From the NCBI GenBank assembly GCA_041489155.1, contig JBGPQP010000001.1, positions 1 to 64,000 of the forward strand: a DNA stretch of 64,000 nucleotides. Reading direction: 5' to 3'. Positions within the stretch are counted from its first letter, which is position 1. The number at the start of each line of letters is the position of its first letter. A program made the position numbers and the translations under genes. Of this stretch, positions 12,620 through 20,244 are shown in pieces. Source of the DNA: Candidatus Aenigmatarchaeota archaeon (lineage in GTDB: Archaea > Aenigmatarchaeota > Aenigmatarchaeia > QMZP01 > QMZT01). The notes beneath the pieces were generated by a model. That model saw only the letters and a program-made list of their open reading frames with translations, did not search any database and was not told the origin of the DNA.

Positions 12620-12889
12620 ATGCACGCAGCAGTCAAAATTTTGATAGGCTTAGTCTTGGTACTTATCGGCCTCGGACTCTTCGTTGATTCTGTATATCCG
12701 ATAATGGGAACCAAGGGAACATTCGGCATAAACTGGCTCGACAACTTCATAATAGTGCTGACAGGCGTCATACCGATATTCCTGATACTTGTTGGTCTGT
12801 TCATAGTATGGCTTGAGGCAGACGAGCTTAAAACGGCAAAGGAATTCGAAGAGCCGGAGAAGGAAGAGCCCAAGAAAAAGAAGAAGTGA
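12620..12889 (+). CDS. Small 2-TM membrane protein with charged tail
   Basis: Two hydrophobic helices, E/K-rich C-terminus, GGGGTG RBS. Confidence 0.75.
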   Translation: MHAAVKILIGLVLVLIGLGLFVDSVYPIMGTKGTFGINWLDNFIIVLTGVIPIFLILVGLFIVWLEADELKTAKEFEEPEKEEPKKKKK

Positions 12890-12890
12890 A

Positions 12891-14609
12891 TCAAACCTCT
12901 GTCCTCTGAACAACAGAATCTTTTATATCCAATTCTTTGTCTTTTTTCCTTATCCTTTCCCCTATTTTTGATCTCTGGACTATCGAATCTATAATGTTTA
13001 TAGTTTCCTTGACCTCAATCTTCTGTATTTCGGTAGCGAAACTCATTGCAATGACCGTGTATTTCAAAATGTCAGACAGTTTTTCCAGCATGTCTTCGAG
13101 CTCATCTTCCTTTCCGGAGTAAAGTTTTAACGCAACGTGAACGAGATCTTCATCTTCTTTGGCAACGGCGGTGAGCAGGTATATCGCACCGTCTTTAGAT
13201 TCCCCAGAAAACATGTATAATCTCTCGTCCTCATAAGCATGTTCTGCAACGAGGCTCATGCCTTTGTATTCCTCAATTATATGGTTTGCAATTTTCTCAA
13301 CGTTCACATCTTTCAGGGTATAACCCCTTATGGCAGAGTGAAGTTGTTTGGTGAGTTTTATGTATTCGGCTTCGTCGATCGCCTTTGGTTGTATGAACGA
13401 CTCCAAATATCTTTTGAATTTTTCCGTGTATCTGAGGCGATTGAAATCCCCCTTGTCCACGGTCTGCGGAGGATTGATTTTTGCAGGAAAATCTAATGAC
13501 GAATCAAGCGTTTCTTCGAGAACGAAAGGCTTCATCTTCTTCCTGAAGGTGCGACCTCTTGCGTCCTTGAAGCTCAGGACAGGCTCAAGCATGGTCCTGC
13601 CGACTGTCATTGGAAGGATTTTGAAAACGAAACCCCTCTCCTCGCGCGGGCCGATCCTGTCGATGTAGTTTCCTGTGAGAGGCTCTGTTTTCAGCTCGAA
13701 AGGGAACTTGACCGTTATCTCTATATCTTCTATGGGGTTTTTTGAGTTGTTTTCGATGGACAGCACGAAATACGATTCTTTTCCAATCTCGAGTTTTTCC
13801 TTCAGGCACGGTCTCACGTCAATGTTGGGTATCACGCATATGCTCGGAGGCCATATATCCCTTTCCCTCTTTTCGCCTTTCCCGTCCTTCCACGTCACCT
13901 TGCGGTAGAGCGGCTTTGAATGCTCCCATGCCACCATGGTGTAGCTGAAAGCTCTCGTTTCGCCGGGCTTCAGCGAGGTTATCGCCTCGAGCTCATTCGC
14001 CTTCTCGCCAAGAATCTTTATGTCGTTCATTGCGTCTTTGGTGTCATTCTTTATTTTCAGCACGACCTCGACCTTGTCCCCTTCCTTCGCTGCCTTTTTT
14101 TCACATTCCTGCTGGACGGTTACGTGGGGTATTATGTCCAGAAGCCTGTTGAGCTTCTTCTCTATTTCCTCGCTGTATTCGATGTCCAGCGATTTCCTGT
14201 AGTTGTTAACGGCAAGGTCATAGTTCCCCGTTTTCTCCCCTGCGTCGCCCATAAGGTTGTAGCACCACTGGACGGCATAAAGGGAATTCATCTTAAGAAA
14301 ATGCTCTATCGCCTTTGTTGCGAAATTGATCACGTTACTGAAATCGCTGAAGGCGAAAGCGTAAACAGCCGCGCTCTTGTACGCCCACCCGACGTTGAAA
14401 TCCTTGCCCAGCTTGGCGTAGCATTTGGCTTCCTCTATGCAGAAATCTATAGCTCTCTTGTCGTTTATTGTTTCCGCGAGCCTGGCGATTGCCTGATAAA
14501 TAGAAGCCGCTTCAGTGTAGTCTTCGCTCCTGAATCTTTTCTCTGCCCTCTTCAGAGACGACTCTATTTCCTTCTCTGTTTTTTTCCTTTCTTTTTCAGC
14601 TTGCTCCAT
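12891..14609 (-). CDS. TPR-like helical repeats + two Ig-like beta domains + alpha/beta C-terminal domain; putative ESCRT-associated adaptor
   Basis: N-terminal helical repeats (AGEKTGNYDLAVNNYRKSL); LKIKND..LKPGET and IENNS..IGPREE CARDB-like patterns; IIDSIVQRS/IKDSVVQRT tail repeat. Confidence 0.65.
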   Translation of the reverse strand: MEQAEKERKKTEKEIESSLKRAEKRFRSEDYTEAASIYQAIARLAETINDKRAIDFCIEEAKCYAKLGKDFNVGWAYKSAAVYAFAFSDFSNVINFATKAIEHFLKMNSLYAVQWCYNLMGDAGEKTGNYDLAVNNYRKSLDIEYSEEIEKKLNRLLDIIPHVTVQQECEKKAAKEGDKVEVVLKIKNDTKDAMNDIKILGEKANELEAITSLKPGETRAFSYTMVAWEHSKPLYRKVTWKDGKGEKRERDIWPPSICVIPNIDVRPCLKEKLEIGKESYFVLSIENNSKNPIEDIEITVKFPFELKTEPLTGNYIDRIGPREERGFVFKILPMTVGRTMLEPVLSFKDARGRTFRKKMKPFVLEETLDSSLDFPAKINPPQTVDKGDFNRLRYTEKFKRYLESFIQPKAIDEAEYIKLTKQLHSAIRGYTLKDVNVEKIANHIIEEYKGMSLVAEHAYEDERLYMFSGESKDGAIYLLTAVAKEDEDLVHVALKLYSGKEDELEDMLEKLSDILKYTVIAMSFATEIQKIEVKETINIIDSIVQRSKIGERIRKKDKELDIKDSVVQRTEV

Positions 14610-14656
14610 ACCGACATTAGATTTTTGGATGTTAAATTCAAATAGATATGCGAAGG

Positions 14657-15775
14657 CTACATGCCCGCTTTTTCCTTCCATTCGTCGTATCTCTGGATCG
14701 ACTTCTCGCTCACGCTTTTGCTGACCTTTGAAAGGGCGTGGTCAAAATCATCCTTCGCCAGCGGCCTGTAGCACATGGCGTATTTTTCAATCTGAGCCGC
14801 TGTAAGCTCCTCGAGTTTCGGGTTCTGCTGCCTTATCATGAACATTATCGCCTCGCGGCACACGTTGGCGATGTCCCTGCCGGAATACCCCGCGCTCCTT
14901 TCCGCAAGGCTGCCAAGCGTTATGCCGGATAGAACGAGGCCTTTCAGGTGGACTTCGAATATCTGCTTCCTGGCATCAGCGTCGGGCAACGGGACGTAAA
15001 TCTTGCGCTGGAACCTCGATATCATCGCGTCATCGAGGTCCCATGGCCTGTTGGTTGCTGCTATCAGTATGACTTTCTCATCCTTTTTCGTAGAGAAGCC
15101 TTCTATCTCGACCAGCAGCTGGGAGATGACGCGTCTCGTCGCTTCATGCACGCCAGAGTCCCTCGTGATCATTATCGCGTCGAACTCGTCCATGAATATT
15201 ATCGAAGGCGCATTTTTCCTTGCCTTCTCGAAAAGCGTGCCGATTATCTTCTCGGACTCGCCGTAGAATTTCGAAAGCAGCGCTGAAGTTCGCGCTTCGA
15301 AGAAATTAGCCTTGAGTGTGCTGCTCGCTGCCTTCGCTATCAGCGTTTTTCCGGTTCCGGGCGGGCCATACAGCAGAAGCGCCCTAGGCACTTCGACGAA
15401 ATCAGGCTTGCCCTTTATCATAGGAAGAACTATCGCCTCCTTCACTTCGCGCTTGACTTCCATGAGGCCGCCGATATCCTCCCATTTGACAGCCGGTTTC
15501 TCGTAAATTACCATGTTGTCTATCGCTTCCTGGGATTTCATTTTTTCCCTGTCGGCACGGAGCGTGTCGCCCATGTCATCGTACTGGCTTGCAGAAGAGA
15601 AAAATGACTCCGCATGCTCCCTAGGAGCTATGTATGCAAGCCTCCTGTATATGGATGCCGCAGTCTTGTAGTGAACAGTCGCCTGTTTCGATCTGCCTTC
15701 GGACTCGAGTTTCCTAGCGAGGTCGATTTCGCGCTGAAGCTGCTGCTTAAGAAGTGATTCTCTCAGTTCCCCCAT
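14657..15775 (-). CDS. Vps4/CdvC-like AAA+ ATPase with MIT-like N-terminal domain
   Basis: KPAVKWEDIGGL, GPPGTGKT, SKFYGESEK, IIFMDE, ATNRPWDLD, GYSGRDI, Vps4-like terminal helix; single AAA module. Confidence 0.85.
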   Translation of the reverse strand: MGELRESLLKQQLQREIDLARKLESEGRSKQATVHYKTAASIYRRLAYIAPREHAESFFSSASQYDDMGDTLRADREKMKSQEAIDNMVIYEKPAVKWEDIGGLMEVKREVKEAIVLPMIKGKPDFVEVPRALLLYGPPGTGKTLIAKAASSTLKANFFEARTSALLSKFYGESEKIIGTLFEKARKNAPSIIFMDEFDAIMITRDSGVHEATRRVISQLLVEIEGFSTKKDEKVILIAATNRPWDLDDAMISRFQRKIYVPLPDADARKQIFEVHLKGLVLSGITLGSLAERSAGYSGRDIANVCREAIMFMIRQQNPKLEELTAAQIEKYAMCYRPLAKDDFDHALSKVSKSVSEKSIQRYDEWKEKAGM

Positions 15776-15795
15776 ATCCCCACCAGAAGAAAAAA

Positions 15796-16416
15796 TTATT
15801 CTGCTTCCTCTTTTTCTTCCTTTTTCATTTCCTCGGTTATGGACTTTGCTTTCTCGCCGGCCATCCTCATGGCAGTCTCCTCGTCGACTTTTTCAAGGTC
15901 GTTTATGGCCTGCATCAGTTCGCGCGACTCGGTGTCGACGAGGAATTCCTCCCTTCCGAAGACTCTCTCCAGCTTTTCCTTGACCTTGTCTAGCCTTCCT
16001 TCCTCCAGCGCTTCCCTGACCTCCGTGTCCGTCAGGACAGCCGTGAGCTTTTCGACGTCGGTATTCATGATTTCCTTGGCTACTTCCGAAACCCTGTCGG
16101 TCTTCTCCCTCTGTCTCATGGCCTGGACGAGGAGGATCAGCTGCAGCTCGTGGATGTATCTTGACGCTTCCAGCTGCTTCGTCCGCGATTCAAGGCTCAG
16201 GGATTTTATCTTCTGGACGTTGAGCATTTTCAGCGTGTTGGGCTGGCCCTTCGCCTCAAGCATGAGCTTCTGTATCTTCTCGGCTATGCCTTTCAAATCA
16301 TCAGAAATCCTTTCGATCTCCTTCTCGATTTTTATCCTTTCCTTGAGGAGATCGTTTTCCTTTATTGAGAAAATGTCTTTGCCGAATTTGAATTTGATGA
16401 ATTTCTTAAAATCCAT
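15796..16416 (-). CDS. All-helical coiled-coil protein, putative ESCRT-III-like
   Basis: ~206 aa, long helical hairpin, acidic C-terminal half; immediately upstream of the MIT-AAA gene; AGGTGA RBS. Confidence 0.55.
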   Translation of the reverse strand: MDFKKFIKFKFGKDIFSIKENDLLKERIKIEKEIERISDDLKGIAEKIQKLMLEAKGQPNTLKMLNVQKIKSLSLESRTKQLEASRYIHELQLILLVQAMRQREKTDRVSEVAKEIMNTDVEKLTAVLTDTEVREALEEGRLDKVKEKLERVFGREEFLVDTESRELMQAINDLEKVDEETAMRMAGEKAKSITEEMKKEEKEEAE

Positions 16417-16461: not shown

Positions 16462-19400
16462 ATGAAAAGAGGTTTTCTGCTTTCACTTGATGCGATAGCG
16501 GCGATAACATTGTTGCTGACTGTTTCGCTCTTGCTTGCGGGGATTTCATTCACCTATGCTTCTCCTGAACTGCGATACCAGAGATATTATTATGCAGGGA
16601 AGGACATAGCCACGGTGCTTGAAGAAACGAAAATGCAGGCCCTGTCAGGCATCATAAATTTCAGCAAATACGGCCTTGCAGCTGAGGACATGAACAGGAC
16701 CATACTCGACGTCGTGGGTTCTTTCTGGGCCGAGGGTAACAGGAGCAAGGCTGAGAATCTGACGAAGGAAATATTCGAAGGTGTTCTGTCCAACACAGGC
16801 CTTAATTATGAAATTTCCTTCAACGATGAAACCCTATATTCGAGCCAGCCGGAATATTCGGCTTACCTTGCAAGGCTTTCGACGATCGTTTCCGGTTATG
16901 AAAAGACGAAGCCCGTGAACGGATACTTGGCGAAGGTTTACGTTACGAAGGTCGCCAAGACAAACTCGGAGTTCTTGTATTTCGGAGGCTACGAAGGCGA
17001 TGGCAACCTCACAAAAACCATACTCCTTCCATCGGACGCGAACGTGACCGGCGTCTATATGGAGCTCAATGCCGGCAACAATTTCACCCTTTTCATAAAC
17101 GGCAACGAATCGGGCCACTACATAAAAACTGCCGCGAACTTTTCGGCAGACAACTGGACCGTGTGCTCGCCTGCGGAACCTGCTCACTGTTCATATTTTT
17201 CGCCGGGCAACAACATCCTGCAGCTGAATTTCATGTCAGGCCAAAATAATTACATAGGCGGAGGCTATCTGAAAGTCACCTACAAAACCTCCGAGCTGAC
17301 GGGCAGCGAATATCTTTACGCCAACGGAACCGCAGATGAGACCCAGTACCTGCCCGGTATAAAAGGCATAATAAATCTCTATTCCTCCTTCTACGTGCCC
17401 GGCACACTCGACAACATAACCGCCCACTTGCATTACAAGAACAACCTGAGTCTCAATAACCAGGGTATTCCGGTTTACTTCATGATAGGCTCAAAACAGA
17501 TATACAGAAGCAATGAGACCGGGGAGATAACGATAGACATTCCCGAACTGAACATATCCTATGCTTTTGGCGGCAAGACAAACCTAACGCAAATCCTGAG
17601 CAATGAAACCGTCCCGATAAGGTTCGGCACCGAAACCTTCGCCTTCACCAGCGGAGAGGGAGCAAGCGACTCGGTCCTCATAACCGACCTATCAGGAAGC
17701 ATGAACGATTCCAGTTCATGCGATGTGCAGACGACCTCCTGCTTGCACCCGGACTGCAACATCGCCAGCGGCTGCCAGAACGGCAGAATAGATGTGGCAA
17801 AGGATGTCGACAAGGAATTCGTTGCTACAATTCTTAATTATACCGGCAACAGAATAGGCCTGGTTGGTTATAATACCACCACTGCCCGGTCCCACGGCCT
17901 CAGCAACAGCAGCACTTCCCTTAACTCTGAAATAAACAGCTACAGGTCTGTATCCAGCGCCACAACATGCATAGCATGCGGTATAGTCAACGCAACAAAC
18001 ATACTCGCCACTTCCAGACTTATAAAGACTGTTATTCCCTCTAAAGCTTCATGGTTTTATAATGCCAGTTTCCCGTCCAGCGAGCTGCCTGCAATTAATG
18101 GCAGCGCATGGACCTGGATTAACTATACGGATTCTGACTGGGCCTCAGGCCAGGCAATACTTGGTTTTGAAGGCTCATCATACAACCCAAACATTGACAC
18201 AAATATAGGAGATAACGGTGGAAATTATTATTTCAGGAAGCATTTCAACCTCAGCGATATGGAAGTTGTTGACTTCGCCGAACTCTATGTTTTGTCAGAC
18301 GACAATGCCGAAATATACCTGAACGGACATCTTATAAACAACGACACGGAAGAGCACAATGCGACCTACTGGAACCTGGGGAACATTACCTTCAGCGATG
18401 ATTTCGAAAGCTATTATGCTAGCGGCGCCAACAGGCTTACTTACACCGAAATAAACCGTACGCCTGGATACTGGATTGTCAACGGGACGCCAACATCGCA
18501 AAAAAATGTTTCTCTGATGGCAAATATTGCAGGTTACCCGGCGCACAGCGGAACCGACGTTCTGGTGTTCAAACGCATGCAAACATATGGGTATGCCGAG
18601 AACTACATCAACCTTACAGGAAAAACGAACATCGTGCTTTCCTACTGGTGGAGGATGGGTGATGGCGACTTTCTTGACAGCGGAGAATACGCAGATGTAT
18701 GGCTATGGGATGGCAGCTGGCATCAGGTAAAGAGGTACTCCACGAACGAGAGCTACAATGAGTATCATCATGATGAAATCGATTTGTCAGGCTATAACAT
18801 GATAAACAATTTCACGGTCAGGTTCGGCCTGAGGTCAAGCAGCGACAGCGAAAGGTTCTATGTCGACGATGTCGGTTACAGGGAGAAGATATGGGTAAAC
18901 GGCTCATATTTCGCCAGCGGAGATAACGTAGTTGCCGTTAAATTAAGGAACAATGACGGCATGGCCGCCAAGTTCGATATGGAGCTGAACGCGACGATGA
19001 AAAGGTACAAAGCGATGCTGGTGATGAGCGACGGCCTTGCAAACACATGTCTCCCCGGTGTCAGCTGCACGGGAAGCACGGCAAGCAACCAGGCGATACT
19101 CAAGGCATGCGAGGCGAGGGATAATAACAGCATAAATGTTTATGCAGTAGGTTTTGGGGCAGGAGCGGATATGAACACTTTGAGCAGGATTGCATGCTGG
19201 AACTGCACCGACAATGACTGGATTCCTGACTGCAACAGATACTACAACAGCTCGAACGCCGATGACCTCGAACAAATTTACAGCGACATAGCCAAAGACA
19301 TAGCCAATGCGAGCTATGCCGCCCAGATATTCAACTTCACCGGCAACATATCTCTTGACAACTTCCTTTATCATGATTCGTACATAGCGCTGAACTATAC

Positions 19401-20244
19401 GCCGGTTACAAAGACGCCTGAATACGGGGAGATAACCATGCGCTTCGAAGCGCCAAGGCTGAGGTCATCCACCGGGGAAACGATGATAACAGACAACATA
19501 ACGGGGACAAAGGAAGGCTGGTTCACGATTCCGGGGGATACGGAAATTTCAACGCAAGTGCTTGACGCCAAGATGACTTCATACTCTTCTTATTACTGGA
19601 CAGACCGCCTGTGGGTCAATTCATCCAACACGCCAAACAATAACTGGACAAGGGTTTACTGGCTCGCTAACTATTCTGATGAATATGAGCAACTCGGAGA
19701 CCCGTACATCATACAGATACCCGCAAACCTGCTGAAAGCAAATGGCAACAATTCCGTAAAGATAGGCACAGGTCTTTATCCTGTTCCCATGTCCAGCGGT
19801 CTCGGCGGCTCGCCTGATGACAGGGTGATCTACACTCTCGGCATCCGGGGCATCAGCCTGGCGCAGTACAGCGACGTATTCCCAAAGGCTAAAGGTTCCA
19901 GGCCAACCATTTATTACGACGCCAACGGAGACAACATACCGGATGCTTCAAGGACCGTGGAAGTCGGGCCCGATCCGAACGACATTTTCGACCCGATGAA
20001 CGACTCGATAGACAACGGCTTCATGAAGCTCATAGACACGATGAATTTCATAAACGATCTGAATCCTGGTGTAGCCGACATGAACAGCACGACGACGGGT
20101 CCAAGCGGCACAGGCGACGGGTCGAACGCGAATCCCGTTGACCTTGAAATCACGGAAGACGTGAACTTCAATTCGGACTTCATTTCACAGATACCGTCCA
20201 TGTGGGGCCCTGCAATAATGGAGGTAAAGGTATGGGGAGGATAA
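16462..20244 (+). CDS. Giant pilin-like surface protein with VWA domain and inserted jelly-roll domains (putative adhesin)
   Basis: Class III-like signal MKRG/FLLSLD; MIDAS DLSGS...T...SDG; YYFRKHF...DDNAEIYLNG module; many N-x-S/T sequons. Confidence 0.8.
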   Translation: MKRGFLLSLDAIAAITLLLTVSLLLAGISFTYASPELRYQRYYYAGKDIATVLEETKMQALSGIINFSKYGLAAEDMNRTILDVVGSFWAEGNRSKAENLTKEIFEGVLSNTGLNYEISFNDETLYSSQPEYSAYLARLSTIVSGYEKTKPVNGYLAKVYVTKVAKTNSEFLYFGGYEGDGNLTKTILLPSDANVTGVYMELNAGNNFTLFINGNESGHYIKTAANFSADNWTVCSPAEPAHCSYFSPGNNILQLNFMSGQNNYIGGGYLKVTYKTSELTGSEYLYANGTADETQYLPGIKGIINLYSSFYVPGTLDNITAHLHYKNNLSLNNQGIPVYFMIGSKQIYRSNETGEITIDIPELNISYAFGGKTNLTQILSNETVPIRFGTETFAFTSGEGASDSVLITDLSGSMNDSSSCDVQTTSCLHPDCNIASGCQNGRIDVAKDVDKEFVATILNYTGNRIGLVGYNTTTARSHGLSNSSTSLNSEINSYRSVSSATTCIACGIVNATNILATSRLIKTVIPSKASWFYNASFPSSELPAINGSAWTWINYTDSDWASGQAILGFEGSSYNPNIDTNIGDNGGNYYFRKHFNLSDMEVVDFAELYVLSDDNAEIYLNGHLINNDTEEHNATYWNLGNITFSDDFESYYASGANRLTYTEINRTPGYWIVNGTPTSQKNVSLMANIAGYPAHSGTDVLVFKRMQTYGYAENYINLTGKTNIVLSYWWRMGDGDFLDSGEYADVWLWDGSWHQVKRYSTNESYNEYHHDEIDLSGYNMINNFTVRFGLRSSSDSERFYVDDVGYREKIWVNGSYFASGDNVVAVKLRNNDGMAAKFDMELNATMKRYKAMLVMSDGLANTCLPGVSCTGSTASNQAILKACEARDNNSINVYAVGFGAGADMNTLSRIACWNCTDNDWIPDCNRYYNSSNADDLEQIYSDIAKDIANASYAAQIFNFTGNISLDNFLYHDSYIALNYTPVTKTPEYGEITMRFEAPRLRSSTGETMITDNITGTKEGWFTIPGDTEISTQVLDAKMTSYSSYYWTDRLWVNSSNTPNNNWTRVYWLANYSDEYEQLGDPYIIQIPANLLKANGNNSVKIGTGLYPVPMSSGLGGSPDDRVIYTLGIRGISLAQYSDVFPKAKGSRPTIYYDANGDNIPDASRTVEVGPDPNDIFDPMNDSIDNGFMKLIDTMNFINDLNPGVADMNSTTTGPSGTGDGSNANPVDLEITEDVNFNSDFISQIPSMWGPAIMEVKVWGG

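Follow-up and report, generated by a model that had tools for sequence, protein, structure and literature searches.

Does a compact gene cluster in a DPANN archaeon encode a membrane-remodeling system of the ESCRT type, and does that system end with the genes of the cluster? Homolog names point to an Aenigmarchaeota (DPANN) host from a genome-reduced lineage (about 1 Mb), and the window refers to the whole stretch of 64,000 nucleotides that was analyzed. Vps4/CdvC is known to take ESCRT-III filaments apart via its MIT domain, and an Ig sandwich plus a platform is the architecture of adaptin and COP appendages. A reading of this DNA from sequence only had proposed three closely spaced, co-oriented genes at 12891..16416, and ORF calls and homolog comparison place three genes there, all on the minus strand and conserved in relatives. 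The first ORF (P0001, 15796..16416) encodes a 206-aa helical protein; its ATG at 16416 is preceded by a Shine-Dalgarno-like AGGTGAG. The second (P0002, 14657..15775) encodes an ATPase of 372 aa. The third (12891..14681) would encode 596 aa in its longest form; this start was dropped because the homologs favor the ATG at 14609, giving an adaptor-like protein of 572 aa (12891..14609) and intergenic gaps of 20 nt and then 47 nt. Among 61 loci retrieved by searching with the helical protein, a same-strand ATPase gene lies downstream in 36 (within 200 nt in 23) and the third gene is present in 15, so the arrangement recurs beyond chance. A look for an RNA holder at the locus listed none, which weighs in neither direction. 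We consider it fairly likely that these genes are the core of a non-division ESCRT-III/Vps4 membrane-remodeling system inherited within one Aenigmarchaeota lineage.

To place the helical protein, we made a profile solely from 91 Aenigmarchaeota sequences and searched 7,992 genome ORFs plus plasmid reference proteins. The best non-self matches, both over the full length, are T. peptonophilus WP_062390968 (20.0 bits) and WP_062390966 (17.2 bits); in a shuffle control, none of the 1,000 shuffles per Thermococcus protein (2,000 in total) matched the real scores (maximum 9.8). With intermediates in the profile the two proteins score 131 and 93 bits, and a profile-profile comparison with the family gives a probability of 98%. 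Table S1 of Makarova et al. 2024 (PMC10936438) enters both under the name "Snf7 family protein". These profile comparisons argue that the helical protein is homologous to tabulated archaeal Snf7-family proteins (arCOG09747/09749). No Pfam Snf7 or PspA_IM30 match was obtained for it or across the genome, and Pfam, NCBIfam and PDB sequence searches with it gave nothing useful. Because the two Thermococcus proteins likewise have no Pfam Snf7 match, this result weakens the case for Pfam Snf7 but not that for the superfamily. The label ESCRT-III is thus taken over from the annotation in PMC10936438, whose Table S3 holds no HHpred row for arCOG09747/09749. A wide profile (A9) missed the T. peptonophilus arCOG07402 protein, which has a weak Pfam Snf7 match, so no transitive chain leads from the helical family to Pfam Snf7. 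Narrow and wide family profiles found no ESCRT-III match among PDB sequences, and a metagenome scan with a distant ESCRT-III profile returned one short locus without the downstream gene.

The AlphaFold model of P0001 is all-helical, as had been read from the sequence, with a short N-terminal helix (residues 3-11), a long hairpin (20-55/60-104), short helices to residue 152 and two C-terminal helices (162-174 and 179-195). This agrees with the size (200-250 aa) and the H0, H1-H2/3 hairpin, H4, H5 order of the canonical ESCRT-III layout described in PMC7619361, the middle region of the model being of low confidence (pLDDT<50 at residues 107-130 and 146-159). The N-terminal half is basic (+8) and the C-terminal half acidic (-13), a split found in 91/91 family members; the two tail helices are conserved and amphipathic-looking, and the N-terminal helix is moderately amphipathic (moment 0.31). 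Foldseek gave no match at E<=0.001, and structural matches to Snf7, CHMP and Vipp1 reach Z 7-8, equal to unrelated hairpins; for Snf7 5fd9 (Z 7.9, rmsd 1.5, 87 residues) unrelated coiled coils tie. The model therefore does not tell an ESCRT-III fold apart from generic hairpins. In the Atlas, a Snf7-bearing cluster stands at rank 24 (16% of members), a lead of low recognition value, and a MIM2 core regular expression matched 0/91 family members. Of the ESCRT-III-like identity first proposed, the homology to tabulated Snf7-family proteins and the synteny with the ATPase gene in relatives stand, whereas the fold does not add to it.

P0002 has one AAA module with intact Walker A/B, pore loop and arginine finger, and a Vps4_C domain at residues 318-371 (14663..14824, minus strand) scores 28.8 bits, above the Pfam cut-off of 21.3; Vps4_C is matched in 33/33 ATPase homologs at E<=0.05. 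In a tree of 14 of 33 full-length Aenigmarchaeota ATPases, hand-picked to span the set, together with references other than CdvC, Asgard or eukaryotic Vps4, katanin, PAN and Meth_adaptin sequences (one reference fragment <190 residues was dropped), P0002 shares a clade with published Main-clade archaeal Vps4s with 100/100 support, apart from Cdc48 D1/D2 and FtsH, and its own clade is sister to the Main-clade Vps4s. A long-branched Halo_adaptin row falls outside this clade. Among the 60 PDB matches listed, katanin p60 is the top single-domain match. That P0002 is a Cdc48 fragment was considered and rejected, since the top PDB scores are two-domain sums, a complete Cdc48 is encoded on contig C10 and the tree separates them. 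The position of the gene downstream of the ESCRT-III-like gene (36/61 loci) corresponds to criterion ii of PMC10936438, an ESCRT component encoded nearby. By its motifs, domain match and tree placement, P0002 is assigned to the Vps4 family, in line with the single-module, Vps4-like ATPase of the sequence-only reading. The three-helix MIT N-terminus of that reading (about residues 1-70; 15566..15775, minus strand) fared less well: over its whole length it can be aligned with the N-termini of Main-clade Vps4s, but profile matches are weak (2v6y, E=0.073; CdvC 4lcb, E=0.76; TPR proteins score above both) and Pfam MIT is matched in none of 29 ATPase-family members. The MIT domain is weakly indicated and is treated as putative.

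The helical protein could instead be a derived substrate of, or adaptor for, a Vps4-like unfoldase acting on a protein complex, with neither filaments nor membranes involved. The lack of a Snf7/PspA profile match or a discriminating fold match, the MIM motif not found and the weak MIT would all fit this; the full-length homology to proteins of published ESCRT loci, the ESCRT-III-like length, helix order and charge polarity, and the linkage described below to SPFH, a membrane scaffold family, do not, and we see only a slim chance for it.

The model of the third protein shows helical repeats, two beta-sandwiches and an alpha/beta domain, the architecture that had been read from the sequence. Its TPR/SNAP-like repeat domain (residues 1-160; 14130..14609, all parts being on the minus strand) matches LGN TPR (Z 18.6) and alpha-SNAP (Z 18.5) in a tie; generic TPRs score equally, and an alpha-SNAP identity was dropped. 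A first Ig-like sandwich follows (residues 163-260; 13830..14123), and the sandwiches give a tandem Ig match to transglutaminase barrels. The second sandwich plus an alpha/beta platform (residues 261-517; 13059..13829) matches the beta2-adaptin appendage 1e42 in Foldseek (E=3.5e-9) and superposes in VIA on the alpha-adaptin, beta2-adaptin and COP appendages (Z 12.7-14.1, 188-213 residues) at an rmsd of 13-15 A, the sub-domain angle differing in the model. The predicted structure thus bears out the suspected adaptin/COP kinship and indicates a full appendage-like region (Ig plus platform). Unlike in AP-2 and COPI, the protein has no HEAT trunk, and no adaptin/COP match was found by sequence. 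The nearest Atlas clusters are Asgard/Bathyarchaeia proteins (0.86-0.88), a lead toward the Asgard TPR/Ig/appendage ESCRT-associated proteins, and neither the C-terminal half nor the SPFH protein had a relative in plasmid searches. The C-terminal tail (12894..13034), at pLDDT<50, is strongly conserved in the homolog alignment and carries IxDS(V/I)VQR twice.

To see how far the system extends, we compared families f1 to f5. The ESCRT-III-like gene occurs in 49 and the Vps4 gene in 45 of their 72 genomes, and a search of 228 further genomes in the phylum recovered neither. Within f4 the two genes tend to be kept or missed as a pair (both in 13 of 35 genomes, a single one in 3, neither in 19), which supports a joint core. 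The adaptor gene is next after Vps4 in 18 of the 19 f1 genomes possessing it. In f2 and f3 it lies just before an SPFH gene in all 13 genomes possessing it and adjoins neither core gene; there it leads a second operon with SPFH and a coiled-coil/Zn/winged-helix (wH)-like protein, small helical proteins also being encoded with it. The system therefore exceeds three genes, and the three-gene operon proposed as the module, though it exists, is one layout of a larger dispersed system; core and accessory genes are scattered in f2/f3 and genus g6. Pfam Band_7 exceeds its cut-off in 2 of 3 f2/f3 SPFH members tested. In the present assembly 0/10 queries from the SPFH region matched; because queries for the neighboring ribosomal proteins also fail, this is best explained by an assembly gap, and a loss of SPFH was dropped. 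A coiled-coil/wH-like candidate is present in 32/36 f1-f3 genomes, here at G000:C4:55384-56313. Its winged helix was assigned by eye, with no Pfam or PDB support, and BLAST gave no significant match to T. peptonophilus arCOG09748. Adaptor, SPFH and wH-like genes occur together in f1-f3 only, so this pattern may represent a single inheritance event.

The same distribution bears on whether the ESCRT-III/Vps4 pair acts alone, the TPR-adaptin belonging to a separate SPFH/wH-like module that came to lie behind Vps4 in f1 by rearrangement only. Core genes occur in 15-16 of 36 f4/f5 genomes, in which no adaptor, SPFH or wH-like gene was detected; the adaptor of f2/f3 is apart from the core, as said; and an f2 genome in which no adaptor or core gene was detected carries SPFH and wH-like genes. 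Against such a separation, the Methanosalsum ESCRT-III/Vps4 locus is surrounded by the same parts (adaptin appendage, SPFH, coiled-coil plus wH), a distant wH-like relative in another family lies directly upstream of genes for a 204-aa helical protein and a divergent MIT-like AAA protein, and the TPR domain alone remains directly after Vps4 in four relatives. A pair acting alone thus appears quite unlikely to us.

For the remodeling system that we favor, polymerization, the interactions and the cellular role are inferred as follows. By analogy with ESCRT-III biology, the 206-aa protein would use its N-terminal helix and basic hairpin to attach to the membrane from the cytoplasmic side, and would polymerize. 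The hexameric ATPase would engage the acidic C-terminal helices of this protein with its own N-terminal helical bundle and unfold subunits, so that the polymer turns over and a membrane neck is constricted or cut. The third protein would serve as a recruitment hub: its TPR domain may contact the core, as the TPR-only forms adjoining Vps4 suggest, and its Ig/appendage end may take cargo or a scaffold, the candidates being the observed linkage partners (SPFH, small helical and coiled-coil/Zn/wH-like proteins). The most likely output would be sorted outward budding (vesicle shedding) or membrane repair.

Such budding or repair, and not cell division, is the probable function. Four FtsZ-family genes are present in the genome, and a search for CdvA found no match anywhere in it (89.65% complete; the Sulfolobus control was positive), which extends the earlier statement that no cdvA is nearby; a role in division is therefore unlikely. 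DPANN divide with FtsZ according to PMC7617429. The system might still aid FtsZ-based division, for example in the final abscission of very small cells: the core is single copy and strongly conserved (54-97% identity among the 120 proteins listed), and here an FtsZ gene is found two genes away from the wH-like gene. The pair, however, was not found in 19/35 f4 genomes (both genes in 13/35, one only in 3/35), nor in the 228 others of the phylum, and we regard a division aid as very unlikely. A Cdv division system was dropped. As in the Cdv of TACK archaea (CdvA/CdvB/CdvC), a Vps4-like gene follows an ESCRT-III-like gene, and the CdvC HMM spans residues 14-369 of P0002 at 233.6 bits; but this is far under the cut-off of 650, and CdvA, a wH extension and MIM2 are missing here while FtsZ is present.

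The patchiness in f4 and the plasmid location of related Main-type loci could also suggest an accessory defense or conflict module performing membrane scission against viruses or competitors, to which might be added that the wH-like partner has a middle domain resembling a restriction endonuclease by eye. The core genes, however, are single copy and sit among housekeeping genes without mobile elements in the loci read, the ATPase had no relative in two viral-contig scans, and the system is near-universal in f1-f3. We find a defense module extremely improbable.

The system assigned here combines a Main-type core with Meth_adaptin-type accessories. That non-Cdv archaeal ESCRT loci had been predicted computationally was rightly suspected, as adaptin-appendage loci are described in PMC10936438. 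In the accessible part of this survey, the "Main" clade comprises Thermococcales, Methanococcales, some Halobacteria and Altiarchaeales, and Meth_adaptin occurs in Methanosalsum, Methanolobus and relatives. The Main clade is alike in its Vps4s (sister to the ATPase), the arCOG09747/09749 proteins and FtsZ alongside; but the T. peptonophilus locus has three ESCRT-III genes and one was found here, and instead of the Ser/Thr kinase, phosphatase, arCOG08177 and arCOG09748, not seen in the neighborhoods here, there are the TPR-Ig-appendage protein and SPFH. Meth_adaptin is alike in its part list, namely ESCRT-III, Vps4, a full adaptin appendage (Ig plus TBP/platform), SPFH (linked here in relatives) and a coiled-coil protein with C-terminal wH (putative here), a likeness at the level of described parts. 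It differs in its two arCOG15284 proteins (Zn-ribbon; TM-GOLD), where one soluble TPR-led appendage protein with the IxDSxVQR tail is found here, in ProX, not seen here, and in an ESCRT-III listed as arCOG00454. The combination bridges two clades kept separate in the survey and bears on the question of whether adaptin appendages were tied to ESCRT early in archaeal history.

The accessible text of a 2025 review (PMC7619361) gives ESCRT-III in all major archaeal lineages but DPANN, and no Aenigmarchaeota locus appears in the accessible part of the survey from 2024. Because Altiarchaeales ESCRT-III is already tabulated there, beside one Woesearchaeota case, the present locus is not the first case DPANN-wide. 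It shows a genome-reduced lineage retaining a conserved single-copy core and a multi-gene accessory set. Our literature search found no experimental study of non-division archaeal ESCRT systems, for which this set, with just one each of ESCRT-III, ATPase and soluble adaptor, would make a small in vitro system.

Across the lineage, genes for pilin-like adhesins are arranged head-to-head with the ESCRT-III gene, and a coat-adaptor-guided ESCRT (ESCRT-III, Vps4, TPR-adaptin, SPFH scaffold, wH-like linker) might remodel the membrane at a host-attachment apparatus, a tentative reading that we think unlikely. If true, this pairing of a Main-type core and adaptin-type accessories would represent a present-day survivor of the sorting ESCRT that has been proposed for the last archaeal common ancestor, put to use in symbiont-host contact or vesicle traffic. 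A vWA/pilin homolog lies upstream on the opposite strand at 37 of the 61 related loci, and a second pilin-like family is head-to-head with the ESCRT-III-like gene at about 9 further loci. The gene here (16462..20244, plus strand), placed by its ORF and homolog positions, is divergently oriented, encodes a pilin-like/vWA surface protein of 1260 aa and is neighboring context, a candidate partner at most.

Three co-oriented genes were found on the minus strand where the sequence-only reading had placed them, and its observation is real and in outline was read correctly. The first encodes a 206-aa helical protein (15796-16416), the second a 372-aa ATPase (14657-15775) and the third an adaptor-like protein (12891-14681 as the longest ORF), for which an alignment of 23 sequences favours an ATG start at 14609, giving 572 aa. 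Shine-Dalgarno-like sequences precede the first two genes, and nearly all homologues bearing names are from Aenigmarchaeota. The genome, in which the window is contig C1, measures 1.13 Mb and is 89.65% complete. Convergent with the adaptor gene, 12620-12889 (+) encodes an 89-aa two-helix membrane protein, kept at the same place in 14 related loci and assigned to no family in a Pfam search.

The ATPase has a single AAA module and a Vps4_C domain above the Pfam cut-off, which is also matched in 33 of 33 homologues. The CdvC profile aligns with residues 14-369 at 233.6 bits, its cut-off of 650 lying far above. In the alignment, the ATPase is without the two-residue insert before the arginine finger that VAT/Cdc48 carry, an absence typical of the Vps4/katanin group. 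Its N-terminal domain aligns with the N-termini of Vps4s of the published Main ESCRT clade; the match to the archaeal AAA N-domain structure 2v6y, which we take to be the Sulfolobus Vps4 MIT domain, is weak (E=0.073), with TPR proteins ranking higher. In a 39-row AAA tree (without CdvC, Asgard or eukaryotic Vps4, katanin, PAN or Meth_adaptin sequences), 14 Aenigmarchaeota ATPases form one clade (99/92), and its sister group consists of five single-module ATPases from plasmids, among which two are published as Vps4s of the Main clade; jointly they are supported at 100/100, separate from Cdc48 D1/D2 and FtsH. The domain match and the phylogeny bear out the earlier call of a Vps4-like ATPase. The CdvC-profile search of the own genome returned only this ATPase, one Cdc48 (contig C10) and a weak replication-factor-like match; the proteasome-activating nucleotidase was absent from these matches in the 89.65% complete genome, which may reflect an assembly gap.

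For the helical protein, no useful match was obtained in Pfam, NCBIfam or PDB sequence searches. All 91 family members have a basic N-terminal half and a more acidic C-terminal half (+8/-13 in the protein itself), a trait of ESCRT-III, and the MIM2 core was found in none of the 91. In the AlphaFold model (91 sequences in the alignment, mean pLDDT 72), the helix at 3-11 is short and is followed by a hairpin at 20-55/60-104, short helices up to 152 at low confidence and two helices at 162-174 and 179-195; this length and helix order match ESCRT-III as described in PMC7619361. Fold searches placed Snf7, CHMP, Vipp1, PspA and Asgard ESCRT-IIIB at Z 7-8, level with unrelated hairpins, and are therefore non-discriminating here. 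There were 26 matches among 1.84 billion representatives, and these include distant homologues aligned over their full length (E 1.6e-9 to 8e-4). A profile of the 91 Aenigmarchaeota sequences only was searched against 7,992 six-frame genome ORFs and reference proteins, the published ESCRT loci being taken from plasmids. Two T. peptonophilus proteins, WP_062390968 (20.0 bits) and WP_062390966 (17.2 bits), were its top non-self matches, across their length, and the next scored 8.1 bits. Neither score was reached in 500 global or 500 windowed shuffles of each protein, and adding intermediates raised them to 131 and 93 bits. Table S1 of PMC10936438 lists them as arCOG09747 and arCOG09749, both 'Snf7 family protein'; Table S3 has no row for either arCOG. 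Pfam Snf7 matches neither of the two proteins, and a wider profile of the helical protein reached no ESCRT-III in PDB. For the ESCRT-III-like designation, sequence homology to published Snf7-family proteins is more informative than the fold searches. The tied fold searches leave room for a non-filament substrate, which, set beside the Snf7-family homology, we consider quite improbable.

The structure model of the adaptor-like protein (23 sequences in the alignment, pLDDT 80) has eight helices (residues 1-160), two beta-sandwiches (163-260 and 263-367) and an alpha/beta domain (386-525). TPRs, LGN and alpha-SNAP match the helical part equally well (Z about 18.5). Over residues 261-517, the model aligns with the appendages of alpha-adaptin, beta2-adaptin and COP in their entirety (Foldseek E 3.5e-9; about 190-210 residues at Z 12.7-14.1, with a high rmsd that probably reflects a differing angle between sub-domains), and the model thus agrees with the adaptin-appendage-like architecture suggested earlier. 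The nearly invariant tail outside the model (12894-13034, minus strand) contains IxDS(V/I)VQR twice and is predicted to be unstructured as a monomer; our guess would be an oligomerisation or beta-repeat motif.

Five profiles were run against one set of 300 genomes from the phylum, of which 72 belong to the own family (f1) and the families labelled 'same order' (f2-f5). The ESCRT-III-like gene, always single-copy, occurs in 49 of the 72 (f1 21/22, f2 2/3, f3 11/11, f4 14/35, f5 1/1), the ATPase at E<=1e-85 in 45 (19/22, 2/3, 8/11, 15/35 and 1/1) and the adaptor in 32 (19/22, 2/3, 11/11, 0/35 and 0/1). Profile searches found neither of the two core genes in any of the remaining 228 genomes, where the adaptor profile gave a single weak, Ig-only match. 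In f4 the core genes tend to occur together: 13 genomes have both, 3 only one and 19 neither, these being non-independent kin with incomplete genomes. The ATPase lies downstream of the helical gene in 36 of 61 fetched loci (32 of 50 where the downstream DNA suffices). The adaptor is present in 15 of the 61, in four of them (L006, L007, L008 and L010) shortened cleanly in place to a TPR-only protein of 167-182 aa with an intact reading frame, directly after the ATPase except in L007, which has one gene between. The adaptor-less f4/f5 core would fit a core that functions without the adaptor, and the shortened forms, which stay near the ATPase, would speak against it; we regard such independence as unlikely.

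In genomes whose adaptor gene does not follow the ATPase, it is the first gene of a separate operon, consisting of the adaptor, an SPFH/Band-7 protein, one or two helical proteins (166-172 aa) and a wH-like protein of 330-350 aa. The last combines a coiled coil with a Cys/His Zn domain and a C-terminal region that by eye resembles a winged helix; Pfam and PDB searches gave no support for the winged helix. Judged from gene coordinates, the adaptor comes after the ATPase in 18 of the 19 adaptor-bearing f1 genomes, and before SPFH in 13 of 13 from f2/f3, of which one carries an inserted gene and two lie at assembly breaks. SPFH occurs in 34 and the wH-like gene in 32 of 36 f1-f3 genomes, and profile searches found neither in 36 f4/f5 genomes. 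The own genome carries the wH-like gene (contig C4, 55384-56313); SPFH was not found in it at 89.65% completeness. Since 0 of 10 SPFH-region queries from same-genus relatives, ribosomal-protein neighbours included, match the own assembly, the region is missing from the assembly. A different ESCRT-like operon lies in another family, f23 (locus L114, 5700-10126, on C4 of genome G078), with a gene that by eye is SPFH-like/coiled-coil, a distant wH-like relative (E 1.6e-10) and a helical protein of 204 aa; its AAA ATPase has a helical N-terminus and, on a long branch, falls outside the Vps4 clade in the tree.

Altiarchaeales are often grouped with DPANN. As the sequence-only reading noted, related non-Cdv archaeal ESCRT loci have been predicted computationally, and they are catalogued in PMC10936438. 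The present system is a new variant of these, kept across the Aenigmarchaeota lineage, with a Main-type core (an ATPase sister to Main-type Vps4s and a helical protein homologous to arCOG09747/arCOG09749) and adaptin/SPFH-type accessories, which resemble, with wH judged by eye, the adaptin appendage, SPFH and coiled-coil+wH set of the Meth_adaptin locus (PMC10936438). As far as covered, the main text of that paper names neither DPANN nor Aenigmarchaeota. The component rows that Table S1 assigns to the 'DPANN group' are three, each Vps4; Table S2 has no Aenigmarchaeota row, one Woesearchaeota PspA/Snf7-family gene adjoining Vps4, and several entries for Altiarchaeales in which Vps4 and arCOG09749 both occur. 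PMC7619361 states that ESCRT-III is absent from DPANN. We found no description of this system in the literature covered, which excluded most subscription papers.

In the bacterium Ca. Chlorohelix allophototropha, plasmid NZ_CP128401 (locus L071, 1-4655) was also seen to have a Main-type ESCRT locus; the record stems from a non-axenic enrichment. Two of its genes are ESCRT-III-like (scoring 63 and 13 bits with A3, a profile related to the helical protein), one encodes a full-length Vps4-type ATPase that joins the Vps4s of the Main clade (98/94), and another a Ser/Thr kinase. According to PMC10936438 and PMC7619361, bacteria are without Vps4/ESCRT systems, and no report of the plasmid locus was found in the same literature, most subscription papers lying outside its scope. 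Planctomycetota and Lentisphaerota Atlas clusters are also similar to the helical protein.

The own genome (89.65% complete) has four FtsZ-family genes and gave no CdvA or PspA match, in keeping with the earlier remark that no cdvA lies nearby. For complex ESCRT systems coexisting with FtsZ, vesicle formation and protein sorting have been proposed (PMC10936438), and PMC7619361 makes the same proposal for cells having both systems. For these reasons we favour a non-division membrane-remodelling machine with an adaptor hub, whose interactions and cellular role we infer. That the system helps in division seems very unlikely given the four FtsZ-family genes and the absence of a CdvA match, and a role in defence more unlikely still. 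Head-to-head with the ESCRT-III-like gene, 16462-20244 (+) encodes a 1260-aa pilin-like/vWA surface protein; in 37 of 61 loci a homologue is found upstream on the opposite strand, and about 9 more have another pilin-like family in this place. A tie between the ESCRT system and these flanking adhesin genes is doubtful, as conserved gene order alone could account for the linkage.
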